This document shows positions 1,832 through 62,202 of a DNA stretch of 64,000 nucleotides, in pieces. The translations under genes and the position numbers were made by a program. Under the pieces are notes generated by a model. It ran no database searches and was not told where the DNA came from. It saw only the letters and a program-made list of their open reading frames with translations. Position 1 is the first letter of the stretch; each line of letters starts with the position of its first letter. Source of the DNA: Psilocybe cubensis (taxonomy: Eukaryota); assembly GCA_017499595.2 (NCBI GenBank), contig CM039004.1:186001-250000 (forward strand), given 5' to 3'.

Positions 1832-3754
1832 GACTCGACCAGCATGGAACTTGAATTGGAAGCACCCTCGACATGACACGCCAATGTCGAGCCAGTCGTC
1901 CTCTTCCCAGGTCAACCGGCCCGACTTGCATCCCCCCGAGAAGAAAGAGATAAAAGACAACATGAATTCCAAAATGGGCAAGCAAGTTGCTTGTTTAAAA
2001 TGGAAGAACAGTCAAACGTCGCCTCGATCATAGGGGTGCATAATGCTTATCAAGTGGCTGATATATAGTAGTAATAGTGGAGATGCAGGGGAGGTAATCG
2101 TTAATATTAAATAATATTTTTAATCAACAGTGATACCGACTCACCGAGCACCGACGAGTAACAACCGCGAATCTTCTGCGTCCTTCGTTACCATATCCGC
2201 ATCCGCATCCGCATCCGCAATCTGCGCGGCCGAGATATGTGCATTGGTCATTACTTTCCTTCTTTACATGTTCACTTCCATGATATGATCTCCAGACCCG
2301 TGCTGCTGGCTACTTACACTTCAATTACACTTCCAATTACATAGCGTAGAATAGGGTTAGGTATATTTATAACTGTTAGTGTTAGTGTTATGTCAAAGTC
2401 TCCTAAGTCTTCGGAGCGCGCTCAATTTGGATATCGAGGCTCAGAGCCGCTGAATTGTGCAAATGCCAAACGCTCGTCGGGGAGTTCAGTCCCGGTGGTA
2501 CTATGTTCACACTGATCAACGGTAGGTGGTATCAAAACATCACGCTGACCATGATTACTACTTGATTAAGTGAAAAAACAACCCGCTAACCAATTGCATC
2601 AGCATTTTTTGGCTGCATAAAACTATACATCCCAGTCACACGCCGCGCGCGCTCAACGACATCTACCGACAAAAATGTAACCCGGAGAGACTTTCACCGG
2701 ACCTTCAAATTAAAACCATTCTGCATTCCCGACAATGACAATAGCTTAGCTTGTTTTCTCATGACACAGGGCAGCGAAGCTAACCCACCTAACCCAGATC
2801 CACCCGCGCTATTGACGTGCCGTGCCACATCTGGATGCCCTATCACATACACACGTAGCGCGGAAGCACAGTGAAGCACGAATCCCAAAGCGTCAAGTAT
2901 GCATCGGTGACGCGAGGACTCTGACCTCTGACAAGGGGTAAGTAGATAGCTTATCAGACGTCGCATCCCCATCCTTCCCAGCCCACGAAAGAAAGCACCT
3001 TCTTGTTCGTTCCTGGACCGGGTGGAGCATCCTATCTCCTTTGTTTGTTGTTCGCAGGGATGGGTAATAGCCAGCACCATCTGATTAACAAGAAATATTC
3101 CTGGAAGAAAATCGTCGTTGTTAGTTTGAGCACACGCATGTTCCATGCCCATGTTCAACAATCAGGGTGAAAGGGTGAAAGGTTCCATGATGGTCAGATT
3201 TCGAATTTCCAACCTTACCCTACGTTTCAATTTCGAGTCTATGAGTACCCTCACTGAACTGACATGACATAATAGAGCTCTCCGAAGACAGAAGACAGAG
3301 GTTCCAGTTCAGCGGGCACACAGGCACATCCGAATCCGAATCCGAGGCGTTTGCGTTTGCCACCGCCACGACAGAACAGAACAGAACAGCGTCATTCGTA
3401 CACTCCTTACTCTTCCATCTTCATGTCATTCCGACCTTCAGCTTCGGGTGTGACTATATACAACCATATACAACTCACACGCGCATCGCTCAAAACACCC
3501 ACCTGTAATTTATATCTCCACAAACACACACCAGTTTCCAAACAAAGACACCCAGAAAATTACGGAGTACAATATTATACAAACACCAAACACGAAACAC
3601 GAAACAGATTAAAAACCTTACCGCCACCGGACTGATCTTCTACTTGTACGTTTCTACTGTCCTCCCTCCTAGACTCGAATACGTATGTATGTATGGGAAG
3701 TGATATCTGGAAGAGCATATGTATATGATCATGAGTAAGAGCCTCACGCTAACA
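1832..3754. repeat. A1: left terminal A segment; left part diverged, right part matches internal copies
   Basis: SNPs and indels versus 9671-10189 up to position 2352 (AATAGGG vs AACAGGG); no differences seen afterwards. Confidence 0.93.
2694..3152 (-). CDS. Possible orphan ORF (~152 aa from ATG, MGMEHACAQ...) in segment A; present in all 7 A copies
   Basis: Longest ORF of the unit and still open in the diverged A7 (54354-54818), where I count 4 synonymous and 3 non-synonymous changes. No recognisable domain. Confidence 0.2.
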   Translation of the reverse strand: MGMEHACAQTNNDDFLPGIFLVNQMVLAITHPCEQQTKEIGCSTRSRNEQEGAFFRGLGRMGMRRLISYLLTPCQRSESSRHRCILDALGFVLHCASALRVYVIGHPDVARHVNSAGGSGLGGLASLPCVMRKQAKLLSLSGMQNGFNLKVR

Positions 3755-6700
3755 GGCTTAGTACTTCGTAGTGCAGTTGAAAGTGAAAAAGCGGCGTTGT
3801 GTGTTAAAATCGGGGGAATGCGTGATGATAATTTCCAAATGTAGAGCGAGTTACCATATTTTGACGACCCTGAGTGAAAGAGATAGAAGTTTTTTCTTAA
3901 ATTTTGCTAGGTGAACTTGCATAGGTTCTCCCCGCCCGAAGGCCTGCCATATATTTTTCTATCTACAACAAACAAGGTGCCTAAAGAATCCTGTCATGTC
4001 GGCACCCTTCAAAGTTGATAGGAAGTCGGGAAGTTGTCATCGCGGAAACTCCTAATCTAGATGGGCAGTAACATAGCTTTCATTGTCACGGTACAAATGT
4101 TGCAACACGATACAGAATTGAACAGTGAAACTTACCTGCAAGTTTGCCTTGACGACACGCACCGCGATCGCCTCCAAGCACATGTTGTAGGTTGTATTGT
4201 GCACATACGTCTTTGGGATACCTGTGAACTTCCTGTCAGTCTCGCTGCAGCTCGATGTAAAAAGAACAAGCGCTCAACAACACATGCTGCTGGCAGAATA
4301 GTTGGACACGGACACAAAACATTGCTTGCGGGAACTTCAGAAACCAAAGTTCAAATTCTGCAAACGGAGAATGGTGAGAACACGCTACAGAATTGGACCA
4401 TACAACCTACGTGGACTCAATACCCGGCCGCGGGAACCTCAGAGCACAGAACATTGCTCGCGGGAACTCCAAAAATCGAATTTTGAAATCTGGCGACAGA
4501 GAACCTCTGAGCACAAAATGTTGCTCGCGGGAAGTCCAAAAAACCGGCTGCTGACAGAATAGTGAGGACACAATACAGAGTTGGGAAATAGCACCTACGT
4601 GGACTCGACAGCCGCGGGAACTTCAGAGCACAAAACATTGCTCGCGGGAACTCCAAAAAACCGAACATCGAATTCTGGTAACCGAATAGTGAGTACACAA
4701 GATGTAATTGGACAATGCCCGGCCAGAACATTGGTCCCAAAATACTGTTCAAGAGAATAGTGAGGAAACGACACGGAATTGGACAACGGCACCTACGTGG
4801 ACTTGACACCCAGCCCGGGGGAACACAATGGCCGTGAAAAAACATCGCTCGCGGGAGCTCCAAAAATCAATTTTTAAAATCTGCTGAGAGAATAGTGAGT
4901 ACACGATATGGAGTTGAGCAATGACACGTACGTGGACTCGACACCCAGGCCGCGGGAACTCCAAATATTGAATTTGAGCACACTGTGCGTGTCGGCGGAC
5001 GTCCAAATATCAAATATGGGTGGGGTGCTCGCCGGAGCTCCAAAAATGCTGTTCAAGAGAGTAGTGAGGACACAACACAGACTTGGACACCAACACCTAC
5101 CTGGACTCAACACCCAGGTCATGGGAACACAATGCCAGTGAAAAACATTGCTCGCGGGAGACCCAAAAATCAATTCTTAAATTCTGTTGAGAGAATAGTG
5201 AGTACACGATGCAGAGTTGGACAATGACACGTACGTGGACTCGACACCCAGGCCGCGGGAACTCCAAATATCGAATTTGAGTACACCGTGATGGCCTAGC
5301 AGTGTCGGCGGACGTCCAAATATCAAATTTGGGTGGGACAGCATCATGTAGCGGACTGGCATAAACTCGGGATACAATCCCTGGCAAAGGAAAAAAATCA
5401 AAGTCGACCTATATACCGCATATTCAAGCTCCGCTATCCCTGCCACAAACAAACCCAAATTCTTCTAGCTCTGATCAATTTCGCTCCTATCAAGGTATAC
5501 GTACATATCCCGCTCCAGCTCAATTTTCAGACCGTAGAATACTTCATCTTCAATTCAACCCTGAAGATACTTTGAATTCAGTCTACAAAACAAAATGACA
5601 CTCAACTTTACATCACAGACACGAGTTCGAATGAAGACAACGCTTCAAGATCAAAAATAACGCACAAGTCCTCAATAACGAAACCACGCCGCTAGCGAAT
5701 ATCGGCTACTAGTAAGCAATATCTGGATCTAAAACCCAGCCCGTCGGTGCCCACAAACCAATCGTGCGGTTTTCAGGGTCGAAAATCTGCCTTTGAATGA
5801 CGCAAGTCTATCAAATTCAGGCCCCAAATTGAGTTTCCGGCTATTTTAGGTATGGTTGAAAGCTCAATTCTAAGGATTAACTGTGGATGCGTGTGATTCT
5901 GATGCAATTCTCTGTTTGTTCAAGGTAAGATTCCAACTAAAAGTCTATGTCGCATTTTCGGACTCAAAATCCGTGATTGATCGCTCCCCAGCGATTATAC
6001 GTCACTAGGTACTATCTTATTTGTCTGTGTCGCCGGACGCCCACAAACAAGTTCACAACCCGAGCCAAATTCGGATTGCCATGCTAATTTAAATAGTGCC
6101 TACGTCCAGACGGGTAGAAAAACATGTTTAAACTCTGAAAACGGGTATATATAACGTACCTTGCCTGCTTTCCATAGCCGGGACCTGTCCAAAAATATAT
6201 TTAAAACTGACATTAACACTCGTCGATAGAACTCGAATGGCGGTTGTTGAAGCTCCTGGAAAACGGTAACATTGCATTCACTGCTAGAGAACAAGACAGG
6301 CTTATCTATACCAGTTTAGTTCATTAGGAGAGGTTGGAAACTACGCTACACAGACAGATCTTTGCATAGTAACCGTTTAAACACATTTCAAGCTCACCAA
6401 ATCATATAACGGATGAAAACAGCGAGCCAACAGTATACAATGAGCATACTTCACAAAGGTCACCGTGTCTGTACAAATTTGTGCACTCCAGACGCTCGTA
6501 AACTATCTAAATTAACATTCAAATCGAAATAACCCACTACACGGACCCACAACCACCACTAAAGACACCCGGAAACGGCTGGAATGAGGTACATACAGAG
6601 ATACCCCACCGATAGCATCACTAACCCACAAGCCAGACCTGCTCGCATGTCACATAGACCACATCCAACGCCACGAACCAACCTCCTCCTCCTCCCCATT

Positions 6701-6870
6701 TACACATCCACAAGCATCTCAACCCGCGTTCTTTTCGCCCCCTTCGCGTTTCAGACCCATTACGACACCCCTTACATACACGATCGAACTATCTGTCAGA
6801 AGAAAATGAGAGGAAGACGCGGTGAACTCGACGAACGTTGCTGTGTGCTGGCAGCACATACACGCTATTT
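3755..6870 (-). ncRNA. Putative spliced non-coding transcript, left arm of B (ends approximate)
   Basis: Minus-strand TATAAA at 6897-6902 followed by a CT-rich tract; many minus-strand GT..AG segments including six regular introns at 4358-5234. My manual splicing of 5380-4797 reaches stops. No expression data. Confidence 0.35.
4287..5335 (-). repeat. Degenerate tandem exon-intron repeat (~130-190 bp monomers, ~303-bp higher-order dimer); present in every B
   Basis: Recurring motifs GAATAGTGAG(T/G)ACAC, C(C/G)TACGTGGACTCGAC, GCCGCGGGAACTCC, AACATTGCTCGCGGGA. On the minus strand monomers contain a 51-53-nt GTA(C/G)GT...CTCAC...CAG intron-like segment (5184-5234, 5049-5100, 4881-4931, 4745-4796, 4548-4598, 4358-4410). 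Confidence 0.85.
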
Positions 6871-6896
6871 GCGCAGAGAACGCGGTTTTGTACGTG

Positions 6897-6902
6897 TTTA
6901 TA
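6897..6902 (-). promoter_or_regulatory. Putative TATA box of the leftward transcription unit
   Basis: CTCTATAAAC on the minus strand, followed ~80-110 nt downstream by TCTTCCTCTCATTTTCTTCT. Confidence 0.35.
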
Positions 6903-8046
6903 GAGTCAGAGGGGCTATATGGTAACTTGAGTGGTATCCGGATATCGTTGGGAGGTTGGTGAGGCCGTGGATTCGCGGTCGAGGGTTGTTTGTGCAAATG
7001 ATCCCTGCATGTTGAAATCGCCCGTTTCACTCGAAATATCGTATATCTGTGCGTTTATGGTGAATGTGGGTGATTGTACACACAATATATTTCGCCACTT
7101 GATGTTCGAGATTGAAAATGTCAAGTCAGTTCTCAAATTCATCGAAACAATATCCATACTCGCCTCTTCTCCTCCACCCCGAATCCACCGCTCTTCTCTC
7201 AAATTTCGAACCGGATTCATATCACCCCCTAATCTATGAATACCCACTAGTCTATCTCACGTACATACTCGCATAATCCGAAGCTCAAACACGAAAATTT
7301 TCATCCATCTCCCGAGCACCGAATTCAGTTCTCCAGCACTAGAGCACAAAAACCACGTACGAGTTCAATAAAGACGCAAATTAAGAATACACCGAATGCA
7401 CACTAACACGTTTCGGATGTTCAGATAGTGCTCCAGGTTTGAATTTTTGCAACACAACTCACCAAGTGTGCATGATCCTCGGATGTCTCTCCCCGTCCCA
7501 TTCTTCCGAAAGAATGGCATTTTCAAACGACTTTGTTGTCAAGGGTTCTATTCGGGTGATACGTAATAGTGAACGGTGTTTTGAAAATGTTGGATCGAGC
7601 GGTGTCTTGACAAAAGCTAGATGTCGATGTTATGTATATTTCACTGAAATGCATTGTACGTACGGATTCAACGCGATGGCAATGACATACCGAGTAGTAG
7701 CAGAGTGAATAATTCAAATCTTGCAGCAGAGTGGCACTGTACTCGATAAAGCTGGAAGAAAGTTGACATTGCAAGAAATTCCATGTTTGAATCCAAACCG
7801 AAACGAAATGTCCATCAAACACACCGAAACAAAATGTCCAAATCAAACACACCAAAAACACATCTATTCACAGTTCCAAAAGGTTTAACGACAGAAGCAA
7901 GCCGTACATACCCTCGGCTAGCACTCGCTTCGCATTGAACTAGCAAAAACTCATTCGTAGATCCTCAAACTCGGACCCTGCAAAGCACGGTACAACCCGA
8001 AATTGCATAGCGTACCGGTGTACGTACAGCGGCGTGTTTCTGGGAC

Positions 8047-8135
8047 TATAAAAGGGTGCGTGAATCGACTCACTTTTTCCCATTCCACTCCCACTCCCCT
8101 CTCAGGGGTCCTCTCCTCTCTCCTCCCCTGTTCTG
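8047..8135 (+). promoter_or_regulatory. Putative core promoter: TATAAAA plus CT-rich box
   Basis: GGGACTATAAAAGGG at 8042-8056, then a ~60-nt pyrimidine tract (CACTTTTTCCCATTCCACTCCCACTCCCCT...CTCTCCTCTCTCCTCCCCT) and a canonical first intron at 8155-8219; typical fungal Pol II layout. Confidence 0.6.
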
Positions 8136-9660
8136 CACGGTGTCGGTTGTTCAGGTAAGCTATTCAGCTGCGCTTTGACACCGCGACTGACGGTGTTTTA
8201 CCGCCTGTTTGTGTGCCAGGTCATCGACTCGACTGACGAGCAGAGCACAGCAGACGTGTCCTGCACACGGTGAGTGAACTGCTTGGGTCTGTTGAGACGA
8301 TGCTGAATGGTGGTGTCGTGGTCTAGACGCGTTGTAGCGACATATTCAGTGAGTACGAGTGAAAATGTGTGACTCGCCTCATCCTGACGCGTCCCCCTTG
8401 CCCCCATTGCCACAGGTCATTGTGCTGCTCATGGGTTGACGTGTCGCGCTGGAACGTGAGTACGAACCCTACACACACGTACATAACCACTCCCATAGTG
8501 CTGCAAGACCCTTCTCGTGTCGTTTCACGCTCTCTGCCGCGTTGTTGAGAACTCGATTGAGGCCGGGCTAGAATGAGAGGTAGATGTGAGTACGAGCCTT
8601 ACACACATGTACATGACCACTCACCGGACACTTCCATTGTGCTTGTCGTTCCGCCCTCTCTGCGCCGTGGCGCCATGGTCTGTGAGTACAAGTAAAAACA
8701 AGATAGTCACGCCACGCTGAAGCTCTTTTCCTCACCCGATGACTGCTCGCCGTATACAAGAGGACCCGCCCATTGCACAGCAAGACCCTTACACCACCAC
8801 CCGTCATTTCGCCCTGTCTGCCGATTTGTGCATCGTGAGATGCGCCATAGCGCCATGTCCTGTGAGTACATATGAAAATGGCCTGGTCGCGTCATGCTGA
8901 AGCACCCTTCTTCACCCCCGCTATCACAGGTTGCCACCCATAGCACTGGACCTCGAGGCAACAGTGAGTACTAAATCCCAAACACATATAGATGTCCGCT
9001 CACCGTGTGTAAAAGGACCATTTTGTTGTGATGCAAAGAGACCTTCCCCGCCCATCGCTTTGCCCGTTGGATGCGCCGCGGCGCTGTGTTCAGTGAGTAA
9101 AGTGAATATAAAACCCCTTCACTGAATCACCTCGTCTCGACCTAGTGTCCAGTGTTGTGTTGAGGCTAGGCATATTGGTGAGTAAGAGGACGACGGCCTG
9201 GCCAACCCCTCGTTTATGACCTTGTAAGCTGAATAGATGGTGTCCAGTGTTGTGCAGGAGGGTGTAATGGATGTGTCGGGGTTAGGCATGGTGGTGAGTA
9301 AGACTACATAACCACTCACCGTGTGTAAGAGGATGACGTCCCTCATTTTTGACCTCGTACACTGCCAAAGTGCTGTCCCACCCCGCTCGCCTCTAACAGC
9401 CCCGCACAACCACTCGTTTTCGACCTCGTATGCTTGGTGTCTAGTGTTGGGCAGGAGGATATAAGTGATGTGTTGATGTTAGGCATAGTGGTGAGTAAGA
9501 CTACATAACTGCTCACCGTGTGCAAGAGGATGACGTCCCTCATTTTTGACCTTGTACACTGCCAGAGTGCTGTCCCACCCCGCTCGCCTCTGATAAGACC
9601 CCACGGACCAGACGGAAAGTTGTAGGCATGGTACGTGATGATTATGCGTCGGGAAACAGT
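8075..9660 (+). ncRNA. Putative multi-intron non-coding transcript, right arm of B (~12 donor sites, mostly short exons)
   Basis: Donor GTAAGC at 8155 and GTGAGT at 8270, 8349, 8456, 8586, 8682, 8862, 8964, 9093, 9178, 9294, 9491. Well-formed introns 8155-8219, 8270-8326, 8349-8415, 8862-8929, 8964-9015, 9093-9145, 9178-9236. First spliced ATG reads ATG GGT TGA. Confidence 0.5.
9238..9591 (+). repeat. Two-copy 197-bp direct tandem duplication within the right arm of B
   Basis: GTGGTGAGTAAGACTACATAAC...GCTGTCCCACCCCGCTCGCCTCT occurs at ~9291-9394 and ~9488-9591. Confidence 0.9.
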
Positions 9661-9670
9661 GGTTAGACTC

Positions 9671-12600
9671 GACTCGACCAGCATGGAACTTGAATTGGAA
9701 GCACCCTCGACATGACACGCCAATGTCGAGTCAGTCATCCTGGCCAACGGTCCGACTTGCAAGATAAAAGACAACATGAATTCCATAATTGGAAAGCAAG
9801 TTGCTTGTTTAAAATGGAAGAACAGTCAAACGTCGCCTCGATCATAGGGGTGCATAATACTTATCAAGTGGCTGATATATAGTAGTAATAGTGGAGATAC
9901 AGGGGAGGTAATCATTAATATCATTATTAATCAACAGTGAGACCTACTCACCGAGCACCGACGAGTAACAACCGCGAATCTTCTGCGTCCTTCGTTACCA
10001 TATCCGCATCCGCATCCGCATCCAAAATCTGCGCGGCCGAGATATGTGCATGTGTATGCACTCGACACTCGGTTGGTGTTGGTGAGTCATTACTTTTACT
10101 TTCCTTCTTTACATGTTCACTTTGACCTCCAGACCCGTGCTGCTGGCCACTTACACTTCAATTACACTTCCAATTACATAGCGTAGAACAGGGTTAGGTA
10201 TATTTATAACTGTTAGTGTTAGTGTTATGTCAAAGTCTCCTAAGTCTTCGGAGCGCGCTCAATTTGGATATCGAGGCTCAGAGCCGCTGAATTGTGCAAA
10301 TGCCAAACGCTCGTCGGGGAGTTCAGTCCCGGTGGTACTATGTTCACACTGATCAACGGTAGGTGGTATCAAAACATCACGCTGACCATGATTACTACTT
10401 GATTAAGTGAAAAAACAACCCGCTAACCAATTGCATCAGCATTTTTTGGCTGCATAAAACTATACATCCCAGTCACACGCCGCGCGCGCTCAACGACATC
10501 TACCGACAAAAATGTAACCCGGAGAGACTTTCACCGGACCTTCAAATTAAAACCATTCTGCATTCCCGACAATGACAATAGCTTAGCTTGTTTTCTCATG
10601 ACACAGGGCAGCGAAGCTAACCCACCTAACCCAGATCCACCCGCGCTATTGACGTGCCGTGCCACATCTGGATGCCCTATCACATACACACGTAGCGCGG
10701 AAGCACAGTGAAGCACGAATCCCAAAGCGTCAAGTATGCATCGGTGACGCGAGGACTCTGACCTCTGACAAGGGGTAAGTAGATAGCTTATCAGACGTCG
10801 CATCCCCATCCTTCCCAGCCCACGAAAGAAAGCACCTTCTTGTTCGTTCCTGGACCGGGTGGAGCATCCTATCTCCTTTGTTTGTTGTTCGCAGGGATGG
10901 GTAATAGCCAGCACCATCTGATTAACAAGAAATATTCCTGGAAGAAAATCGTCGTTGTTAGTTTGAGCACACGCATGTTCCATGCCCATGTTCAACAATC
11001 AGGGTGAAAGGGTGAAAGGTTCCATGATGGTCAGATTTCGAATTTCCAACCTTACCCTACGTTTCAATTTCGAGTCTATGAGTACCCTCACTGAACTGAC
11101 ATGACATAATAGAGCTCTCCGAAGACAGAAGACAGAGGTTCCAGTTCAGCGGGCACACAGGCACATCCGAATCCGAATCCGAGGCGTTTGCGTTTGCCAC
11201 CGCCACGACAGAACAGAACAGAACAGCGTCATTCGTACACTCCTTACTCTTCCATCTTCATGTCATTCCGACCTTCAGCTTCGGGTGTGACTATATACAA
11301 CCATATACAACTCACACGCGCATCGCTCAAAACACCCACCTGTAATTTATATCTCCACAAACACACACCAGTTTCCAAACAAAGACACCCAGAAAATTAC
11401 GGAGTACAATATTATACAAACACCAAACACGAAACACGAAACAGATTAAAAACCTTACCGCCACCGGACTGATCTTCTACTTGTACGTTTCTACTGTCCT
11501 CCCTCCTAGACTCGAATACGTATGTATGTATGGGAAGTGATATCTGGAAGAGCATATGTATATGATCATGAGTAAGAGCCTCACGCTAACAGGCTTAGTA
11601 CTTCGTAGTGCAGTTGAAAGTGAAAAAGCGGCGTTGTGTGTTAAAATCGGGGGAATGCGTGATGATAATTTCCAAATGTAGAGCGAGTTACCATATTTTG
11701 ACGACCCTGAGTGAAAGAGATAGAAGTTTTTTCTTAAATTTTGCTAGGTGAACTTGCATAGGTTCTCCCCGCCCGAAGGCCTGCCATATATTTTTCTATC
11801 TACAACAAACAAGGTGCCTAAAGAATCCTGTCATGTCGGCACCCTTCAAAGTTGATAGGAAGTCGGGAAGTTGTCATCGCGGAAACTCCTAATCTAGATG
11901 GGCAGTAACATAGCTTTCATTGTCACGGTACAAATGTTGCAACACGATACAGAATTGAACAGTGAAACTTACCTGCAAGTTTGCCTTGACGACACGCACC
12001 GCGATCGCCTCCAAGCACATGTTGTAGGTTGTATTGTGCACATACGTCTTTGGGATACCTGTGAACTTCCTGTCAGTCTCGCTGCAGCTCGATGTAAAAA
12101 GAACAAGCGCTCAACAACACATGCTGCTGGCAGAATAGTTGGACACGGACACAAAACATTGCTTGCGGGAACTTCAGAAACCAAAGTTCAAATTCTGCAA
12201 ACGGAGAATGGTGAGAACACGCTACAGAATTGGACCATACAACCTACGTGGACTCAATACCCGGCCGCGGGAACCTCAGAGCACAGAACATTGCTCGCGG
12301 GAACTCCAAAAATCGAATTTTGAAATCTGGCGACAGAGAACCTCTGAGCACAAAATGTTGCTCGCGGGAAGTCCAAAAAACCGGCTGCTGACAGAATAGT
12401 GAGGACACAATACAGAGTTGGGAAATAGCACCTACGTGGACTCGACAGCCGCGGGAACTTCAGAGCACAAAACATTGCTCGCGGGAACTCCAAAAAACCG
12501 AACATCGAATTCTGGTAACCGAATAGTGAGTACACAAGATGTAATTGGACAATGCCCGGCCAGAACATTGGTCCCAAAATACTGTTCAAGAGAATAGTGA

Positions 12601-15600
12601 GGAAACGACACGGAATTGGACAACGGCACCTACGTGGACTTGACACCCAGCCCGGGGGAACACAATGGCCGTGAAAAAACATCGCTCGCGGGAGCTCCAA
12701 AAATCAATTTTTAAAATCTGCTGAGAGAATAGTGAGTACACGATATGGAGTTGAGCAATGACACGTACGTGGACTCGACACCCAGGCCGCGGGAACTCCA
12801 AATATTGAATTTGAGCACACTGTGCGTGTCGGCGGACGTCCAAATATCAAATATGGGTGGGGTGCTCGCCGGAGCTCCAAAAATGCTGTTCAAGAGAGTA
12901 GTGAGGACACAACACAGACTTGGACACCAACACCTACCTGGACTCAACACCCAGGTCATGGGAACACAATGCCAGTGAAAAACATTGCTCGCGGGAGACC
13001 CAAAAATCAATTCTTAAATTCTGTTGAGAGAATAGTGAGTACACGATGCAGAGTTGGACAATGACACGTACGTGGACTCGACACCCAGGCCGCGGGAACT
13101 CCAAATATCGAATTTGAGTACACCGTGATGGCCTAGCAGTGTCGGCGGACGTCCAAATATCAAATTTGGGTGGGACAGCATCATGTAGCGGACTGGCATA
13201 AACTCGGGATACAATCCCTGGCAAAGGAAAAAAATCAAAGTCGACCTATATACCGCATATTCAAGCTCCGCTATCCCTGCCACAAACAAACCCAAATTCT
13301 TCTAGCTCTGATCAATTTCGCTCCTATCAAGGTATACGTACATATCCCGCTCCAGCTCAATTTTCAGACCGTAGAATACTTCATCTTCAATTCAACCCTG
13401 AAGATACTTTGAATTCAGTCTACAAAACAAAATGACACTCAACTTTACATCACAGACACGAGTTCGAATGAAGACAACGCTTCAAGATCAAAAATAACGC
13501 ACAAGTCCTCAATAACGAAACCACGCCGCTAGCGAATATCGGCTACTAGTAAGCAATATCTGGATCTAAAACCCAGCCCGTCGGTGCCCACAAACCAATC
13601 GTGCGGTTTTCAGGGTCGAAAATCTGCCTTTGAATGACGCAAGTCTATCAAATTCAGGCCCCAAATTGAGTTTCCGGCTATTTTAGGTATGGTTGAAAGC
13701 TCAATTCTAAGGATTAACTGTGGATGCGTGTGATTCTGATGCAATTCTCTGTTTGTTCAAGGTAAGATTCCAACTAAAAGTCTATGTCGCATTTTCGGAC
13801 TCAAAATCCGTGATTGATCGCTCCCCAGCGATTATACGTCACTAGGTACTATCTTATTTGTCTGTGTCGCCGGACGCCCACAAACAAGTTCACAACCCGA
13901 GCCAAATTCGGATTGCCATGCTAATTTAAATAGTGCCTACGTCCAGACGGGTAGAAAAACATGTTTAAACTCTGAAAACGGGTATATATAACGTACCTTG
14001 CCTGCTTTCCATAGCCGGGACCTGTCCAAAAATATATTTAAAACTGACATTAACACTCGTCGATAGAACTCGAATGGCGGTTGTTGAAGCTCCTGGAAAA
14101 CGGTAACATTGCATTCACTGCTAGAGAACAAGACAGGCTTATCTATACCAGTTTAGTTCATTAGGAGAGGTTGGAAACTACGCTACACAGACAGATCTTT
14201 GCATAGTAACCGTTTAAACACATTTCAAGCTCACCAAATCATATAACGGATGAAAACAGCGAGCCAACAGTATACAATGAGCATACTTCACAAAGGTCAC
14301 CGTGTCTGTACAAATTTGTGCACTCCAGACGCTCGTAAACTATCTAAATTAACATTCAAATCGAAATAACCCACTACACGGACCCACAACCACCACTAAA
14401 GACACCCGGAAACGGCTGGAATGAGGTACATACAGAGATACCCCACCGATAGCATCACTAACCCACAAGCCAGACCTGCTCGCATGTCACATAGACCACA
14501 TCCAACGCCACGAACCAACCTCCTCCTCCTCCCCATTTACACATCCACAAGCATCTCAACCCGCGTTCTTTTCGCCCCCTTCGCGTTTCAGACCCATTAC
14601 GACACCCCTTACATACACGATCGAACTATCTGTCAGAAGAAAATGAGAGGAAGACGCGGTGAACTCGACGAACGTTGCTGTGTGCTGGCAGCACATACAC
14701 GCTATTTGCGCAGAGAACGCGGTTTTGTACGTGTTTATAGAGTCAGAGGGGCTATATGGTAACTTGAGTGGTATCCGGATATCGTTGGGAGGTTGGTGAG
14801 GCCGTGGATTCGCGGTCGAGGGTTGTTTGTGCAAATGATCCCTGCATGTTGAAATCGCCCGTTTCACTCGAAATATCGTATATCTGTGCGTTTATGGTGA
14901 ATGTGGGTGATTGTACACACAATATATTTCGCCACTTGATGTTCGAGATTGAAAATGTCAAGTCAGTTCTCAAATTCATCGAAACAATATCCATACTCGC
15001 CTCTTCTCCTCCACCCCGAATCCACCGCTCTTCTCTCAAATTTCGAACCGGATTCATATCACCCCCTAATCTATGAATACCCACTAGTCTATCTCACGTA
15101 CATACTCGCATAATCCGAAGCTCAAACACGAAAATTTTCATCCATCTCCCGAGCACCGAATTCAGTTCTCCAGCACTAGAGCACAAAAACCACGTACGAG
15201 TTCAATAAAGACGCAAATTAAGAATACACCGAATGCACACTAACACGTTTCGGATGTTCAGATAGTGCTCCAGGTTTGAATTTTTGCAACACAACTCACC
15301 AAGTGTGCATGATCCTCGGATGTCTCTCCCCGTCCCATTCTTCCGAAAGAATGGCATTTTCAAACGACTTTGTTGTCAAGGGTTCTATTCGGGTGATACG
15401 TAATAGTGAACGGTGTTTTGAAAATGTTGGATCGAGCGGTGTCTTGACAAAAGCTAGATGTCGATGTTATGTATATTTCACTGAAATGCATTGTACGTAC
15501 GGATTCAACGCGATGGCAATGACATACCGAGTAGTAGCAGAGTGAATAATTCAAATCTTGCAGCAGAGTGGCACTGTACTCGATAAAGCTGGAAGAAAGT

Positions 15601-17507
15601 TGACATTGCAAGAAATTCCATGTTTGAATCCAAACCGAAACGAAATGTCCATCAAACACACCGAAACAAAATGTCCAAATCAAACACACCAAAAACACAT
15701 CTATTCACAGTTCCAAAAGGTTTAACGACAGAAGCAAGCCGTACATACCCTCGGCTAGCACTCGCTTCGCATTGAACTAGCAAAAACTCATTCGTAGATC
15801 CTCAAACTCGGACCCTGCAAAGCACGGTACAACCCGAAATTGCATAGCGTACCGGTGTACGTACAGCGGCGTGTTTCTGGGACTATAAAAGGGTGCGTGA
15901 ATCGACTCACTTTTTCCCATTCCACTCCCACTCCCCTCTCAGGGGTCCTCTCCTCTCTCCTCCCCTGTTCTGCACGGTGTCGGTTGTTCAGGTAAGCTAT
16001 TCAGCTGCGCTTTGACACCGCGACTGACGGTGTTTTACCGCCTGTTTGTGTGCCAGGTCATCGACTCGACTGACGAGCAGAGCACAGCAGACGTGTCCTG
16101 CACACGGTGAGTGAACTGCTTGGGTCTGTTGAGACGATGCTGAATGGTGGTGTCGTGGTCTAGACGCGTTGTAGCGACATATTCAGTGAGTACGAGTGAA
16201 AATGTGTGACTCGCCTCATCCTGACGCGTCCCCCTTGCCCCCATTGCCACAGGTCATTGTGCTGCTCATGGGTTGACGTGTCGCGCTGGAACGTGAGTAC
16301 GAACCCTACACACACGTACATAACCACTCCCATAGTGCTGCAAGACCCTTCTCGTGTCGTTTCACGCTCTCTGCCGCGTTGTTGAGAACTCGATTGAGGC
16401 CGGGCTAGAATGAGAGGTAGATGTGAGTACGAGCCTTACACACATGTACATGACCACTCACCGGACACTTCCATTGTGCTTGTCGTTCCGCCCTCTCTGC
16501 GCCGTGGCGCCATGGTCTGTGAGTACAAGTAAAAACAAGATAGTCACGCCACGCTGAAGCTCTTTTCCTCACCCGATGACTGCTCGCCGTATACAAGAGG
16601 ACCCGCCCATTGCACAGCAAGACCCTTACACCACCACCCGTCATTTCGCCCTGTCTGCCGATTTGTGCATCGTGAGATGCGCCATAGCGCCATGTCCTGT
16701 GAGTACATATGAAAATGGCCTGGTCGCGTCATGCTGAAGCACCCTTCTTCACCCCCGCTATCACAGGTTGCCACCCATAGCACTGGACCTCGAGGCAACA
16801 GTGAGTACTAAATCCCAAACACATATAGATGTCCGCTCACCGTGTGTAAAAGGACCATTTTGTTGTGATGCAAAGAGACCTTCCCCGCCCATCGCTTTGC
16901 CCGTTGGATGCGCCGCGGCGCTGTGTTCAGTGAGTAAAGTGAATATAAAACCCCTTCACTGAATCACCTCGTCTCGACCTAGTGTCCAGTGTTGTGTTGA
17001 GGCTAGGCATATTGGTGAGTAAGAGGACGACGGCCTGGCCAACCCCTCGTTTATGACCTTGTAAGCTGAATAGATGGTGTCCAGTGTTGTGCAGGAGGGT
17101 GTAATGGATGTGTCGGGGTTAGGCATGGTGGTGAGTAAGACTACATAACCACTCACCGTGTGTAAGAGGATGACGTCCCTCATTTTTGACCTCGTACACT
17201 GCCAAAGTGCTGTCCCACCCCGCTCGCCTCTAACAGCCCCGCACAACCACTCGTTTTCGACCTCGTATGCTTGGTGTCTAGTGTTGGGCAGGAGGATATA
17301 AGTGATGTGTTGATGTTAGGCATAGTGGTGAGTAAGACTACATAACTGCTCACCGTGTGCAAGAGGATGACGTCCCTCATTTTTGACCTTGTACACTGCC
17401 AGAGTGCTGTCCCACCCCGCTCGCCTCTGATAAGACCCCACGGACCAGACGGAAAGTTGTAGGCATGGTACGTGATGATTATGCGTCGGGAAACAGTGGT
17501 TAGACTC
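9671..17507. repeat. Unit 2 (A2 9671-11591 + B2 11592-17507)
   Basis: ORF translations identical to neighbouring units at offset 7837. Confidence 0.95.
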
Positions 17508-20500
17508 GACTCGACCAGCATGGAACTTGAATTGGAAGCACCCTCGACATGACACGCCAATGTCGAGTCAGTCATCCTGGCCAACGGTCCGACTTGCAAG
17601 ATAAAAGACAACATGAATTCCATAATTGGAAAGCAAGTTGCTTGTTTAAAATGGAAGAACAGTCAAACGTCGCCTCGATCATAGGGGTGCATAATACTTA
17701 TCAAGTGGCTGATATATAGTAGTAATAGTGGAGATACAGGGGAGGTAATCATTAATATCATTATTAATCAACAGTGAGACCTACTCACCGAGCACCGACG
17801 AGTAACAACCGCGAATCTTCTGCGTCCTTCGTTACCATATCCGCATCCGCATCCGCATCCAAAATCTGCGCGGCCGAGATATGTGCATGTGTATGCACTC
17901 GACACTCGGTTGGTGTTGGTGAGTCATTACTTTTACTTTCCTTCTTTACATGTTCACTTTGACCTCCAGACCCGTGCTGCTGGCCACTTACACTTCAATT
18001 ACACTTCCAATTACATAGCGTAGAACAGGGTTAGGTATATTTATAACTGTTAGTGTTAGTGTTATGTCAAAGTCTCCTAAGTCTTCGGAGCGCGCTCAAT
18101 TTGGATATCGAGGCTCAGAGCCGCTGAATTGTGCAAATGCCAAACGCTCGTCGGGGAGTTCAGTCCCGGTGGTACTATGTTCACACTGATCAACGGTAGG
18201 TGGTATCAAAACATCACGCTGACCATGATTACTACTTGATTAAGTGAAAAAACAACCCGCTAACCAATTGCATCAGCATTTTTTGGCTGCATAAAACTAT
18301 ACATCCCAGTCACACGCCGCGCGCGCTCAACGACATCTACCGACAAAAATGTAACCCGGAGAGACTTTCACCGGACCTTCAAATTAAAACCATTCTGCAT
18401 TCCCGACAATGACAATAGCTTAGCTTGTTTTCTCATGACACAGGGCAGCGAAGCTAACCCACCTAACCCAGATCCACCCGCGCTATTGACGTGCCGTGCC
18501 ACATCTGGATGCCCTATCACATACACACGTAGCGCGGAAGCACAGTGAAGCACGAATCCCAAAGCGTCAAGTATGCATCGGTGACGCGAGGACTCTGACC
18601 TCTGACAAGGGGTAAGTAGATAGCTTATCAGACGTCGCATCCCCATCCTTCCCAGCCCACGAAAGAAAGCACCTTCTTGTTCGTTCCTGGACCGGGTGGA
18701 GCATCCTATCTCCTTTGTTTGTTGTTCGCAGGGATGGGTAATAGCCAGCACCATCTGATTAACAAGAAATATTCCTGGAAGAAAATCGTCGTTGTTAGTT
18801 TGAGCACACGCATGTTCCATGCCCATGTTCAACAATCAGGGTGAAAGGGTGAAAGGTTCCATGATGGTCAGATTTCGAATTTCCAACCTTACCCTACGTT
18901 TCAATTTCGAGTCTATGAGTACCCTCACTGAACTGACATGACATAATAGAGCTCTCCGAAGACAGAAGACAGAGGTTCCAGTTCAGCGGGCACACAGGCA
19001 CATCCGAATCCGAATCCGAGGCGTTTGCGTTTGCCACCGCCACGACAGAACAGAACAGAACAGCGTCATTCGTACACTCCTTACTCTTCCATCTTCATGT
19101 CATTCCGACCTTCAGCTTCGGGTGTGACTATATACAACCATATACAACTCACACGCGCATCGCTCAAAACACCCACCTGTAATTTATATCTCCACAAACA
19201 CACACCAGTTTCCAAACAAAGACACCCAGAAAATTACGGAGTACAATATTATACAAACACCAAACACGAAACACGAAACAGATTAAAAACCTTACCGCCA
19301 CCGGACTGATCTTCTACTTGTACGTTTCTACTGTCCTCCCTCCTAGACTCGAATACGTATGTATGTATGGGAAGTGATATCTGGAAGAGCATATGTATAT
19401 GATCATGAGTAAGAGCCTCACGCTAACAGGCTTAGTACTTCGTAGTGCAGTTGAAAGTGAAAAAGCGGCGTTGTGTGTTAAAATCGGGGGAATGCGTGAT
19501 GATAATTTCCAAATGTAGAGCGAGTTACCATATTTTGACGACCCTGAGTGAAAGAGATAGAAGTTTTTTCTTAAATTTTGCTAGGTGAACTTGCATAGGT
19601 TCTCCCCGCCCGAAGGCCTGCCATATATTTTTCTATCTACAACAAACAAGGTGCCTAAAGAATCCTGTCATGTCGGCACCCTTCAAAGTTGATAGGAAGT
19701 CGGGAAGTTGTCATCGCGGAAACTCCTAATCTAGATGGGCAGTAACATAGCTTTCATTGTCACGGTACAAATGTTGCAACACGATACAGAATTGAACAGT
19801 GAAACTTACCTGCAAGTTTGCCTTGACGACACGCACCGCGATCGCCTCCAAGCACATGTTGTAGGTTGTATTGTGCACATACGTCTTTGGGATACCTGTG
19901 AACTTCCTGTCAGTCTCGCTGCAGCTCGATGTAAAAAGAACAAGCGCTCAACAACACATGCTGCTGGCAGAATAGTTGGACACGGACACAAAACATTGCT
20001 TGCGGGAACTTCAGAAACCAAAGTTCAAATTCTGCAAACGGAGAATGGTGAGAACACGCTACAGAATTGGACCATACAACCTACGTGGACTCAATACCCG
20101 GCCGCGGGAACCTCAGAGCACAGAACATTGCTCGCGGGAACTCCAAAAATCGAATTTTGAAATCTGGCGACAGAGAACCTCTGAGCACAAAATGTTGCTC
20201 GCGGGAAGTCCAAAAAACCGGCTGCTGACAGAATAGTGAGGACACAATACAGAGTTGGGAAATAGCACCTACGTGGACTCGACAGCCGCGGGAACTTCAG
20301 AGCACAAAACATTGCTCGCGGGAACTCCAAAAAACCGAACATCGAATTCTGGTAACCGAATAGTGAGTACACAAGATGTAATTGGACAATGCCCGGCCAG
20401 AACATTGGTCCCAAAATACTGTTCAAGAGAATAGTGAGGAAACGACACGGAATTGGACAACGGCACCTACGTGGACTTGACACCCAGCCCGGGGGAACAC

Positions 20501-23500
20501 AATGGCCGTGAAAAAACATCGCTCGCGGGAGCTCCAAAAATCAATTTTTAAAATCTGCTGAGAGAATAGTGAGTACACGATATGGAGTTGAGCAATGACA
20601 CGTACGTGGACTCGACACCCAGGCCGCGGGAACTCCAAATATTGAATTTGAGCACACTGTGCGTGTCGGCGGACGTCCAAATATCAAATATGGGTGGGGT
20701 GCTCGCCGGAGCTCCAAAAATGCTGTTCAAGAGAGTAGTGAGGACACAACACAGACTTGGACACCAACACCTACCTGGACTCAACACCCAGGTCATGGGA
20801 ACACAATGCCAGTGAAAAACATTGCTCGCGGGAGACCCAAAAATCAATTCTTAAATTCTGTTGAGAGAATAGTGAGTACACGATGCAGAGTTGGACAATG
20901 ACACGTACGTGGACTCGACACCCAGGCCGCGGGAACTCCAAATATCGAATTTGAGTACACCGTGATGGCCTAGCAGTGTCGGCGGACGTCCAAATATCAA
21001 ATTTGGGTGGGACAGCATCATGTAGCGGACTGGCATAAACTCGGGATACAATCCCTGGCAAAGGAAAAAAATCAAAGTCGACCTATATACCGCATATTCA
21101 AGCTCCGCTATCCCTGCCACAAACAAACCCAAATTCTTCTAGCTCTGATCAATTTCGCTCCTATCAAGGTATACGTACATATCCCGCTCCAGCTCAATTT
21201 TCAGACCGTAGAATACTTCATCTTCAATTCAACCCTGAAGATACTTTGAATTCAGTCTACAAAACAAAATGACACTCAACTTTACATCACAGACACGAGT
21301 TCGAATGAAGACAACGCTTCAAGATCAAAAATAACGCACAAGTCCTCAATAACGAAACCACGCCGCTAGCGAATATCGGCTACTAGTAAGCAATATCTGG
21401 ATCTAAAACCCAGCCCGTCGGTGCCCACAAACCAATCGTGCGGTTTTCAGGGTCGAAAATCTGCCTTTGAATGACGCAAGTCTATCAAATTCAGGCCCCA
21501 AATTGAGTTTCCGGCTATTTTAGGTATGGTTGAAAGCTCAATTCTAAGGATTAACTGTGGATGCGTGTGATTCTGATGCAATTCTCTGTTTGTTCAAGGT
21601 AAGATTCCAACTAAAAGTCTATGTCGCATTTTCGGACTCAAAATCCGTGATTGATCGCTCCCCAGCGATTATACGTCACTAGGTACTATCTTATTTGTCT
21701 GTGTCGCCGGACGCCCACAAACAAGTTCACAACCCGAGCCAAATTCGGATTGCCATGCTAATTTAAATAGTGCCTACGTCCAGACGGGTAGAAAAACATG
21801 TTTAAACTCTGAAAACGGGTATATATAACGTACCTTGCCTGCTTTCCATAGCCGGGACCTGTCCAAAAATATATTTAAAACTGACATTAACACTCGTCGA
21901 TAGAACTCGAATGGCGGTTGTTGAAGCTCCTGGAAAACGGTAACATTGCATTCACTGCTAGAGAACAAGACAGGCTTATCTATACCAGTTTAGTTCATTA
22001 GGAGAGGTTGGAAACTACGCTACACAGACAGATCTTTGCATAGTAACCGTTTAAACACATTTCAAGCTCACCAAATCATATAACGGATGAAAACAGCGAG
22101 CCAACAGTATACAATGAGCATACTTCACAAAGGTCACCGTGTCTGTACAAATTTGTGCACTCCAGACGCTCGTAAACTATCTAAATTAACATTCAAATCG
22201 AAATAACCCACTACACGGACCCACAACCACCACTAAAGACACCCGGAAACGGCTGGAATGAGGTACATACAGAGATACCCCACCGATAGCATCACTAACC
22301 CACAAGCCAGACCTGCTCGCATGTCACATAGACCACATCCAACGCCACGAACCAACCTCCTCCTCCTCCCCATTTACACATCCACAAGCATCTCAACCCG
22401 CGTTCTTTTCGCCCCCTTCGCGTTTCAGACCCATTACGACACCCCTTACATACACGATCGAACTATCTGTCAGAAGAAAATGAGAGGAAGACGCGGTGAA
22501 CTCGACGAACGTTGCTGTGTGCTGGCAGCACATACACGCTATTTGCGCAGAGAACGCGGTTTTGTACGTGTTTATAGAGTCAGAGGGGCTATATGGTAAC
22601 TTGAGTGGTATCCGGATATCGTTGGGAGGTTGGTGAGGCCGTGGATTCGCGGTCGAGGGTTGTTTGTGCAAATGATCCCTGCATGTTGAAATCGCCCGTT
22701 TCACTCGAAATATCGTATATCTGTGCGTTTATGGTGAATGTGGGTGATTGTACACACAATATATTTCGCCACTTGATGTTCGAGATTGAAAATGTCAAGT
22801 CAGTTCTCAAATTCATCGAAACAATATCCATACTCGCCTCTTCTCCTCCACCCCGAATCCACCGCTCTTCTCTCAAATTTCGAACCGGATTCATATCACC
22901 CCCTAATCTATGAATACCCACTAGTCTATCTCACGTACATACTCGCATAATCCGAAGCTCAAACACGAAAATTTTCATCCATCTCCCGAGCACCGAATTC
23001 AGTTCTCCAGCACTAGAGCACAAAAACCACGTACGAGTTCAATAAAGACGCAAATTAAGAATACACCGAATGCACACTAACACGTTTCGGATGTTCAGAT
23101 AGTGCTCCAGGTTTGAATTTTTGCAACACAACTCACCAAGTGTGCATGATCCTCGGATGTCTCTCCCCGTCCCATTCTTCCGAAAGAATGGCATTTTCAA
23201 ACGACTTTGTTGTCAAGGGTTCTATTCGGGTGATACGTAATAGTGAACGGTGTTTTGAAAATGTTGGATCGAGCGGTGTCTTGACAAAAGCTAGATGTCG
23301 ATGTTATGTATATTTCACTGAAATGCATTGTACGTACGGATTCAACGCGATGGCAATGACATACCGAGTAGTAGCAGAGTGAATAATTCAAATCTTGCAG
23401 CAGAGTGGCACTGTACTCGATAAAGCTGGAAGAAAGTTGACATTGCAAGAAATTCCATGTTTGAATCCAAACCGAAACGAAATGTCCATCAAACACACCG

Positions 23501-25344
23501 AAACAAAATGTCCAAATCAAACACACCAAAAACACATCTATTCACAGTTCCAAAAGGTTTAACGACAGAAGCAAGCCGTACATACCCTCGGCTAGCACTC
23601 GCTTCGCATTGAACTAGCAAAAACTCATTCGTAGATCCTCAAACTCGGACCCTGCAAAGCACGGTACAACCCGAAATTGCATAGCGTACCGGTGTACGTA
23701 CAGCGGCGTGTTTCTGGGACTATAAAAGGGTGCGTGAATCGACTCACTTTTTCCCATTCCACTCCCACTCCCCTCTCAGGGGTCCTCTCCTCTCTCCTCC
23801 CCTGTTCTGCACGGTGTCGGTTGTTCAGGTAAGCTATTCAGCTGCGCTTTGACACCGCGACTGACGGTGTTTTACCGCCTGTTTGTGTGCCAGGTCATCG
23901 ACTCGACTGACGAGCAGAGCACAGCAGACGTGTCCTGCACACGGTGAGTGAACTGCTTGGGTCTGTTGAGACGATGCTGAATGGTGGTGTCGTGGTCTAG
24001 ACGCGTTGTAGCGACATATTCAGTGAGTACGAGTGAAAATGTGTGACTCGCCTCATCCTGACGCGTCCCCCTTGCCCCCATTGCCACAGGTCATTGTGCT
24101 GCTCATGGGTTGACGTGTCGCGCTGGAACGTGAGTACGAACCCTACACACACGTACATAACCACTCCCATAGTGCTGCAAGACCCTTCTCGTGTCGTTTC
24201 ACGCTCTCTGCCGCGTTGTTGAGAACTCGATTGAGGCCGGGCTAGAATGAGAGGTAGATGTGAGTACGAGCCTTACACACATGTACATGACCACTCACCG
24301 GACACTTCCATTGTGCTTGTCGTTCCGCCCTCTCTGCGCCGTGGCGCCATGGTCTGTGAGTACAAGTAAAAACAAGATAGTCACGCCACGCTGAAGCTCT
24401 TTTCCTCACCCGATGACTGCTCGCCGTATACAAGAGGACCCGCCCATTGCACAGCAAGACCCTTACACCACCACCCGTCATTTCGCCCTGTCTGCCGATT
24501 TGTGCATCGTGAGATGCGCCATAGCGCCATGTCCTGTGAGTACATATGAAAATGGCCTGGTCGCGTCATGCTGAAGCACCCTTCTTCACCCCCGCTATCA
24601 CAGGTTGCCACCCATAGCACTGGACCTCGAGGCAACAGTGAGTACTAAATCCCAAACACATATAGATGTCCGCTCACCGTGTGTAAAAGGACCATTTTGT
24701 TGTGATGCAAAGAGACCTTCCCCGCCCATCGCTTTGCCCGTTGGATGCGCCGCGGCGCTGTGTTCAGTGAGTAAAGTGAATATAAAACCCCTTCACTGAA
24801 TCACCTCGTCTCGACCTAGTGTCCAGTGTTGTGTTGAGGCTAGGCATATTGGTGAGTAAGAGGACGACGGCCTGGCCAACCCCTCGTTTATGACCTTGTA
24901 AGCTGAATAGATGGTGTCCAGTGTTGTGCAGGAGGGTGTAATGGATGTGTCGGGGTTAGGCATGGTGGTGAGTAAGACTACATAACCACTCACCGTGTGT
25001 AAGAGGATGACGTCCCTCATTTTTGACCTCGTACACTGCCAAAGTGCTGTCCCACCCCGCTCGCCTCTAACAGCCCCGCACAACCACTCGTTTTCGACCT
25101 CGTATGCTTGGTGTCTAGTGTTGGGCAGGAGGATATAAGTGATGTGTTGATGTTAGGCATAGTGGTGAGTAAGACTACATAACTGCTCACCGTGTGCAAG
25201 AGGATGACGTCCCTCATTTTTGACCTTGTACACTGCCAGAGTGCTGTCCCACCCCGCTCGCCTCTGATAAGACCCCACGGACCAGACGGAAAGTTGTAGG
25301 CATGGTACGTGATGATTATGCGTCGGGAAACAGTGGTTAGACTC
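17508..25344. repeat. Unit 3 (A3 17508-19428 + B3 19429-25344)
   Basis: ORF translations identical at offset 7837. Confidence 0.95.
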
Positions 25345-39036: not shown

Positions 39037-39217
39037 TGTTGGAATGATAGTCGGCGAGCGACTTGGTCGCTAAGTCGTTATCTTCCTCTTGTAGTTTATC
39101 TTATCATATTTTTTCTAGATTATTCTACTATAGGTTCCGTAGTTACTGTAGGTACAACCGTGTAGCTACGTCGTGAATCTACATCTTTTACCACCACTGC
39201 GCATTATACTTACAACA
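39037..39217 (+). repeat. 5' LTR (181 bp)
   Basis: TGTTGGAATG...ACTTACAACA; no difference seen from the 3' LTR. Confidence 0.98.
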
Positions 39218-39229
39218 GGTTATGGGCCC
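39218..39229 (+). promoter_or_regulatory. Primer-binding site complementary to the anticodon arm of initiator tRNA-Met (half-tRNA priming)
   Basis: GGTTATGGGCCC directly after the LTR; same PBS type as Drosophila copia. Confidence 0.85.
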
Positions 39230-62188: not shown

Positions 62189-62202
62189 TCATTCTCTCTT
62201 AA

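Follow-up and report, generated by a model that had tools for sequence, protein, structure and literature searches.

Yeast arrays of the CUP1 type are amplified by unequal exchange between flanking direct repeats, and they carry a selectable gene. Human macrosatellites such as D4Z4 and DXZ4 are described, in the excerpts of the sources at hand, as kilobase-scale head-to-tail units with near-identical copies, variable number or presence and promoter-like sites (PMC5687341, PMC2965761). Herein, we describe a tandem array of a 7,837-bp unit, made of two segments termed A and B, in a 64,000-nt stretch of Psilocybe cubensis DNA (assembly GCA_017499595.2, contig CM039004.1, positions 186,001 to 250,000 of the forward strand). 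This stretch is called the window, and all coordinates are counted from its first letter. The array shares the listed traits with the human macrosatellites. Unlike D4Z4, it is fungal, has only six copies and holds no gene in its unit, where D4Z4 carries DUX4. The locus resembles CUP1-type arrays and, as far as the partial accounts of it go, the reintegration of extrachromosomal circular DNA (eccDNA) in its A-(B-A)n layout, in the hybrid repeats at its edges and in being present in some strains and absent from others; those arrays carry a selectable gene, whereas none is evident here. The listed literature on macrosatellites of basidiomycetes concerned ribosomal DNA (rDNA) spacers rather than a locus of this kind.

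In Cryptococcus, poorly spliced transcripts are routed to small interfering RNA (siRNA) by spliceosome-coupled and nuclear RNA interference, SCANR (Dumesic et al. 2013, summarised in PMC5851062), and mRNA accumulation is intron-dependent (PMC3744415). Transgene arrays in Cryptococcus trigger RNA interference (RNAi) by sex-induced silencing or co-suppression (PMC3420925). TRISS of Fusarium graminearum produces siRNA of both strands from tandem direct repeats that exceed about 1.1-3 kb, even where the repeat is intergenic, and the yield rises with native transcription (PMC12366691). These accounts follow excerpts of the four papers. A first-pass annotation of the window had invoked SCANR and the intron dependence of mRNA, and within the same excerpts both statements hold, the latter for Cryptococcus (PMC5851062, PMC3744415). 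It had read B as a candidate bidirectional cassette of spliced non-coding RNA (ncRNA) whose arms converge on A. We consider it probable that the locus is instead a strain-polymorphic, recently expanded and recombination-driven amplification of fast-evolving non-coding DNA, of the macrosatellite or copy-number-variation kind. Two observations are new here: A adjoins the right flank without B in other samples, and the outermost A copies of the array are hybrid.

Structure of the tandem array

The unit was defined as 3755-11591 and then compared with the window by BLAST. Repeat families were spaced 7,837 bp apart throughout the array, with one spacing of 12,476 bp. The order was head to tail: left flank (1-1831), A0, (B-A)x6 and right flank (55418-64000). 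The parts of the array are the following.

1832..55417, plus strand: tandem array A0-(B-A)x6 with a 7,837-bp unit, seven A and six B, 53,586 bp including a copia insertion
1832..3754, plus strand: A0, the leftmost A, a hybrid; 1832-2352 is of the diverged 'chromosomal' type and 2353-3754 of the inner type
3755..9670, no strand assigned: first copy of B, 5,916 bp, with a left arm, a centre and a right arm
9671..11591, no strand assigned: inner copy of A, 1,921 bp; all inner A copies are identical
39037..43670, plus strand: intact Ty1/copia element in the fifth copy of B, with a 1,395-aa open frame (39295-43482) containing gag, integrase and RVT_2
53494..55417, plus strand: A6, the rightmost A, a hybrid; the left part is of the inner type and the sequence is diverged from 54509 on

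Taking the first and the full-length matches, units started at 3755, 11592, 19429, 27266, 35103 (split) and 47579. Copies 2 to 4 showed no mismatch and no other difference to the first unit. The fifth copy came in two pieces (35103-39036 and 43671-47578), and the last (47579-55417) was 99.64% identical to the first. On the left, a partial copy matched over 2251-3754 at 99.3% and over 1832-2244 at 88.6% identity. As in macrosatellites, therefore, a unit of more than 1 kb (7,837 bp) recurs head to tail, and its copies are highly identical.

Junction homology defined the array borders to the single base. Homology ended after the same position (3754 = 55417) at the junctions of A with B and of A with the right flank, and it began at the same position (1832 = 9671) where the left flank meets A0 and where B meets A. 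The limits previously given for B, 3755-9670, are exact: A ends at 3754 and the next A begins at 9671. The BLAST layout also agrees with the earlier description that every inner A lies between a rightward arm and a leftward arm of B. At the passage from B to A (9661-9675), the end of B repeats the first five bases of A, giving the direct duplication GACTC GACTC; the junction of the left flank with A0 is without it. The duplication may be a microhomology scar from the first joining of B to A.

Hybrid copies of A at the array edges

The only diverged part of A0 was 1832-2352, which was 88.6% identical to inner A, with indels. This left part is marked by a 44-bp gap with TGGTCA, and two other samples, X7 and X11, have the same mark (joint 53874/53919). 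At the opposite edge, A6 diverged from inner A only from unit position 6932 (54509) onward; of the 28 alignment columns in which the last copy is listed as different, 27 fell in the right part of A and one in B. The diverged parts of A0 and A6 do not overlap, and the 496 bp between them are identical in all three A types.

The outermost hybrid copies mark homologous recombination within A. Three models fit the edges: one reciprocal crossover between alleles or paralogues of A, by unequal exchange or by Campbell-type entry of a circle; the same founding crossover followed by more unequal exchange; or an older array whose outer edges escaped homogenisation. Under all three, homologous recombination within A would build or maintain the array. 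The first-pass annotation had suggested that the element may capture host DNA. Such capture is unnecessary, since homologous recombination within A yields hybrid outer A copies of this kind.

The locus in other samples

Reads and contigs of other samples were compared with the last unit and the right flank (47579-64000). The results below refer to the entries listed; the full tables have a further 363 rows of differing letters, 98 more loose ends and another 49 pieces of contigs. In X5 and X6, two samples of another study, 0.97-0.98 of the words of the unit were present, and several further runs had 0.07-0.13. Four runs were listed as possible sources of this DNA, and no RNA run was listed among those containing the unit. 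In X7 and X11, A was about single-copy and most of B was missing; both are several percent diverged from the window even in the flank, and some of this absence may be divergence below the 88% threshold.

The contig depth of X7 was 24-28 in most flank bins and in the first two bins of A, 18 in the third bin of A, and 0 over 51963-53058 in the right arm of B. The match of a 3,695-nt contig started exactly at the left border of A (53494), and the 2,305 nt to the left of A in this contig were not among the pieces listed on B. A second contig of X7 (55024-55477) crossed the border between A and flank (55417) into the right flank. In the raw DNA of X11, we counted 20-30 reads per strand in the flank, 8-14 in A and 0 in most bins of B. 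X11 covered B only in patches of about 50-300 nt, edged by loose ends in 39-45 reads; expressed as first-copy equivalents, these patches are as follows.

3844-3895, ~5330-5476, 5721-5780, 6716-6846, 7166-7467 and 7987-8096: patches of B covered in X11

At the listed diagnostic sites in the left part of A, all reads of X11 were of the A0 (chromosomal) type, and the type of the inner A left part was not seen in the reads of X11 or X7. The species thus includes a state in which A stands between the flanks without B. Segment A is host DNA of an ordinary, single-copy kind: a sample lacking B has it next to the right flank, and the same chromosomal-type mark in A is seen in X11. The array differs between strains in presence or copy number.

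One contig of X7 had a depth of 177, about 6.5 times the single-copy depth of about 27. It matched the unit in 27-nt pieces at 49154 and 50627 (equal to 5330 and 6803), two places of B at a distance of 1,472 bp. X7 may have several copies of such B-like pieces, with the caution that a 27-nt match is too short to rely on.

X13 and X14, two RNA-like runs under the same species label, produced spliced contigs over the flank genes, but on the unit only pieces of 22-26 nt with long unlike ends. Other samples of that species label are without B, so X13 and X14 are uninformative on expression of the array. In both runs, RNA contigs (depths 53.5 and 13.9) contained GCTCGCGGGAACTCCAAAAA, a motif of the left arm, flanked by sequence unlike the unit; within about 13 nt after it came text like the inner end of the left arm. 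The 22-26-nt matches were flagged unreliable, and the contigs give a weak hint that a single-module relative of the left arm may be transcribed in other strains.

Copia insertion and age of the array

The copia element was present in one of the six B copies. Its long terminal repeats (LTRs) of about 182 bp were 100% identical, and it was flanked by a 5-bp target duplication. The element looks very young and is possibly active. Given that the inner copies are identical and that a copia with identical LTRs sits in one copy only, we infer that the expansion of the array was recent. The last B copy had a 1-bp difference of its own; this and the presence of copia in a single copy speak against a pure assembly artefact.

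Intron-like modules in the arms of B

Self-BLAST of the unit revealed internal direct repeats at 4313-5337 and 8456-9604, which form two arms unrelated to each other. All self-BLAST pairs were plus/plus; no inverted pair of at least 40 nt was found at E<=1e-3. The arms and their intron-like segments in the first copy are listed below.

4050..5340, minus strand: left arm, about six repeated modules, with one intron-like segment of 48-53 nt per module
5234-5184, 5100-5049, 4931-4884, 4796-4745, 4598-4551 and 4410-4358, minus strand: left-arm intron-like segments
8155..9604, plus strand: right arm, repeated exon-intron-like modules
8155-8219, 8349-8415, 8862-8929, 9093-9145 and 9491-9565, plus strand: included among the right-arm intron-like segments, passing the listing model

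The strict model demanded GTRNGT and YAG within a length of 42-95 nt, together with a pyrimidine tract and a branch-like site, and 200 dinucleotide shuffles served as the control. In the left arm, six segments passed on the minus strand and none on the plus strand (1.03 expected; one of 200 shuffles reached six). The right arm gave four on the plus and one on the minus strand (0.98 expected; 8/200 shuffles reached the count). The arm modules are copies of one another, and these counts are not independent events. The same model gave a count of three in one RNA-verified flank gene (0.41 expected, 5/200 shuffles) and two in another (0.28 expected, 8/200 shuffles). The arms of B thus bear out the earlier description of intron-like segments that face outward.

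Reference introns of the organism, taken from RNA contigs on the flank genes, were 52-110 nt long and started with GTACGT, GTATGT, GTAAGT, GTGAGT, GTGAGA, GTGCGA or GTGCGT. Between 8270 and 9491, the plus strand has 11 occurrences of GTGAGT. Direct reading indicated that some right-arm modules no longer have an acceptor (8586 compared with 8456). The left-arm modules also read as weak plus-strand introns; the pyrimidine tract is missing there, and none pass the model.

Within the window, the arm modules were confined to the array; introner-like elements are near-identical introns dispersed across many unrelated genes. Tandem Repeats Finder reported only small simple repeats in the unit, the arm modules being too diverged for detection. 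The 20-nt motif GCTCGCGGGAACTCCAAAAA occurred five times per unit (at 4456-4475 and four more sites), with 30 matches at up to two mismatches where 0 were expected. Metagenome scans with this left-arm motif and with a conserved central patch gave 0 matches each.

Promoter-like sites in B

Two promoter-like sites lie 1.15 kb apart.

6897..6902, minus strand: TATAAA, putative leftward promoter, with an intron-like segment at 6861-6793 (minus)
8047..8135, plus strand: TATAAAA (TATAAA at 8047-8052) with a CT-rich tract, putative rightward promoter

The tract that follows the plus-strand TATA comprises 69 nt, 81% of them pyrimidine. Each unit contains TATAAA five times, and the count for the window was 41, where 27.4 were expected (sd 5.6); this is close to expectation, so that a TATA box alone is near chance. 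Both TATA sites proposed earlier are present, the rightward one with its CT box. A scan for bacterial promoters and terminators stayed at chance level and is not relevant to a eukaryote.

X11 keeps 7987-8036, just upstream of the plus-strand TATA (patch 51811-51860), and the adjoining loose ends read a similar TATAAAAG box. X11 thus carries a diverged relative of at least the 7987-8036 part of B. In the left half of B, A exceeds T and C exceeds G on the plus strand. This composition fits minus-sense transcription, and the plus-strand TATA with its CT box, conserved in X11, fits a promoter; on both grounds, outward non-coding transcription units may be proposed for B.

Coding potential and RNA families

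In a permissive splice graph, the longest stop-free path was 181 aa on the minus and 167 aa on the plus strand, and the longest unspliced open reading frame (ORF) of the unit was 160 aa. None of the 85 ORFs of at least 50 aa reached the Pfam cut-off; one match to DUF2805 fell below it (18.5 bits against a cut-off of 22.5). The three longest ORFs, all on the minus strand (4420-4866, 10534-10998 and 9346-9825), had no homologue among proteins of similar length. Mismatches between sub-repeats were spread over the three codon phases as 14/11/10 and 2/6/7, which is no codon periodicity. These results agree with the earlier statement that there is no spliced ORF, and B is non-coding by all coding tests run. 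Inner A had no domain and no ORF with homologues, and the unit had no small CaaX or Cys-rich ORFs, which had been considered with pheromone-like products in mind.

The ORF at 5180-5464 (minus) was compared by HMMER with 1.84 billion representatives and matched one repeat protein of 1,964 aa, through seven stretches of 25-30 bits at 25-30% identity. We rejected this match as repeat-inflated chance.

No Rfam family matched at the gathering threshold, nor did any match the unit when the limit was relaxed to E<=1. ARAGORN found 0 tRNAs. A telomerase-RNA gene was rejected, as the unit contains no 1.5-copy telomere template. An array of a laboratory plasmid or transformation vector was likewise dismissed; among 72,556 bacterial plasmid records, blastn found nothing that matched the whole unit as query.

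The right flank

The first 1.5 kb of the right flank (55418-56900) carried 6-14 reads per strand in X11, compared with 20-30 further out, and among the listed pieces of X7 only gapped ones fell there; this is a hypervariable zone beside the array. A WSC-domain gene follows at 57900-59750 (plus; Pfam PF01822, E 2.5e-12), with five GT..AG introns of 56-67 nt supported by X13 RNA contigs at a depth of about 150-167. At 60200-60911 (plus) lies an expressed spliced gene with no Pfam match and one 52-nt intron, at a depth of about 240-250 in X13 and X14. The alleles of the two runs differ there, with 17 differences and five gaps in one against two in the other. A further expressed spliced gene with no Pfam match and at least three CT..AC joints occupies 62126-63316 (minus). 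The 1,110 bp of 60994-62103 were skipped in an X7 contig and in 29 reads of X11, the joint having one extra A. On visual inspection, the ends of this segment are alike (about 61040-61260 and 61870-62100), and it looks like a strain-specific local tandem duplication.

Comparison with classes of mobile and repeated elements

LTR elements were sought by TG...CA ends, a 4-6-bp target duplication, a primer-binding site starting with TGG and a polypurine tract. We rejected an LTR retrotransposon or large retrotransposon derivative (LARD) with A as the LTR: A starts with GACTCGACC and ends with GCTAACA, B starts with GGCTTAGTAC, and the bases flanking the array (AGTCA and CGAAT) differ, giving no target duplication. 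The retained sense-strand intron-like segments would also argue against passage through RNA. Helitrons have the ends 5'-TC...CTRR-3' with a 3' hairpin and insert between A and T; the junction sequences of the array do not fit them. A DNA transposon with terminal inverted repeats was discarded for lack of inverted termini in the unit, and a hairpin siRNA locus for lack of a long inverted repeat. A protein-coding gene fails the open-frame, domain and homologue tests, and an array of known structured RNA genes (rDNA, small nuclear RNA, small nucleolar RNA, tRNA or telomerase RNA) was set aside with no Rfam, tRNA or template match.

Discussion

We propose the following course for the locus. The ancestral or alternative state would be left flank, A and right flank. 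In this strain, the 5.9-kb B would have come to stand between copies of A, and the B-A unit would then have multiplied to six by homologous recombination within A, either through unequal exchange between the A copies that flank B or through Campbell-type entry of a circle of B and A with multimerisation. The original sequence would be retained in the outermost A copies, on their outer sides only. B itself may be a fast-evolving non-coding member of a small sequence family present in other strains; its arms would have grown through internal duplication of exon-intron-like modules, and it may form a pair of outward-facing, spliced non-coding transcription units. No dedicated function would be needed to explain the array.

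Several points weigh against this account. The hybrid edges would be accounted for by unequal exchange, by the integration of a circle or by an old array whose edges were never homogenised. The perfect identity of the inner copies could stem in part from assembly polishing. The first arrival of B between A copies is left unexplained, as the junctions between A and B and between B and A have no homology except GACTC. Neutral amplification also leaves unexplained why the intron-like modules are regular, strand-consistent and as dense as in real genes; within the six aligned left-arm modules, the intron-like portion is the best conserved. Lastly, conservation of the plus-TATA region in the diverged relative in X11 hints at a possible functional promoter.

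Among the alternatives, B and A together could be a non-autonomous circular-DNA element, or be derived from one, that enters the chromosome through its host-derived A, the array being an integrated multimer. The complementary diverged parts of A0 and A6 around the 496-bp identical interval are what one Campbell-type crossover would leave, the left part of inner A is unlike the X11 and X7 type, presence varies by strain, and the B-less X7 has short pieces of B in a contig at depth 177 against about 27. Yet the unit contains no recombinase, replication gene or other ORF, and no terminal repeats, target duplication or hairpin ends; the same edges arise by unequal exchange or in an old array with unhomogenised edges, and the match in the deep X7 contig is 27 nt on its shorter side and flagged unreliable. 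We regard such an element as unlikely. An assembly artefact, in which the assembler worked a circular or collapsed repeat into the chromosome sequence, is extremely improbable: the inner copies are indeed exactly identical, and an assembler switching between chromosome and circle within the 496-bp stretch would mimic the hybrid edges, but copia occupies one copy alone with normal copies on either side, the last B has its own 1-bp difference, and the two samples of another study hold nearly all of the unit's words.

Two further explanations turn on the content of B. It is quite doubtful that B is the remnant of one or two decayed, intron-rich protein genes with duplicated exons, passively amplified. 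In size and signals the intron-like segments are like the real introns of the genome, the acceptor has been lost from some modules, and promoter-like sites are present; against this, protein or domain similarity is absent apart from one weak hit to 5180-5464 (minus), in which segments of 25-30 bits are counted seven times, and no residual codon periodicity is left. The proposal of the first-pass annotation, a dedicated bidirectional cassette of spliced ncRNA that yields siRNA through convergent double-stranded RNA (dsRNA) over A or through SCANR-like stalling, strikes us as very unlikely on the sequence evidence. Its geometry is as described, with intron-like modules facing outward and no ORF; a CT box accompanies the plus-strand TATA, which is conserved in the X11 relative; the strand composition of the left half of B fits minus-sense transcription; and SCANR does route poorly spliced transcripts of Cryptococcus to siRNA, in the excerpt available (PMC5851062). 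Against it, TATAAA is near chance, 1.15 kb separate the promoter-like sites, an inverted repeat is absent from B, and A has no gene, domain or homologue and hence presents no evident target for silencing. AT-rich, terminator-like stretches also lie just inside both ends of A (9850-9935 and 11340-11450), and overlap of the two transcripts, with dsRNA across A, therefore remains an assumption.

A dedicated siRNA-generating system is, then, an unlikely reading of this DNA, and any siRNA output would most simply be generic RNAi induced by tandem repeats, directed at the whole unit rather than at A. In the excerpts available, the repeats of TRISS and of the Cryptococcus arrays are similar in kind, and the present array, with six units of 7.8 kb, is well beyond the lengths tested there; those were engineered repeats in other fungi. 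Likewise, SCANR substrates are repetitive, non-coding, intron-bearing transcripts, and the array DNA is repetitive, non-coding and intron-like. The substrates described in the same partial source are transposon transcripts with poorly spliced introns, unlike the good consensus signals seen here at the DNA level. We find it highly improbable that the locus represents a family of protein-free silencing cassettes: non-coding, promoter-bearing, intron-dense elements that propagate as tandem arrays or DNA circles, use host sequence to enter chromosomes by homologous recombination, feed RNAi on the enclosed segment by outward spliced transcripts or by the array state, and vary among strains.

What remains puzzling is that, behind promoter-like sites, DNA that encodes no protein keeps intron-like modules which are regular and strand-consistent; this leaves a small chance that the element is of a truly new kind. 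Were the modules spliced, the array would supply a multi-copy, intron-dense pair of long non-coding RNAs that could load spliceosomes or RNAi. If the plain reading, a recombination-driven amplification, is true, the locus would be a clean natural case of a very young fungal amplification with a kilobase-scale unit, in which both the recombinant edges and the empty allele are kept. It would be useful for understanding how such arrays arise, and would offer a natural substrate for tandem-repeat RNAi beyond transgenes.

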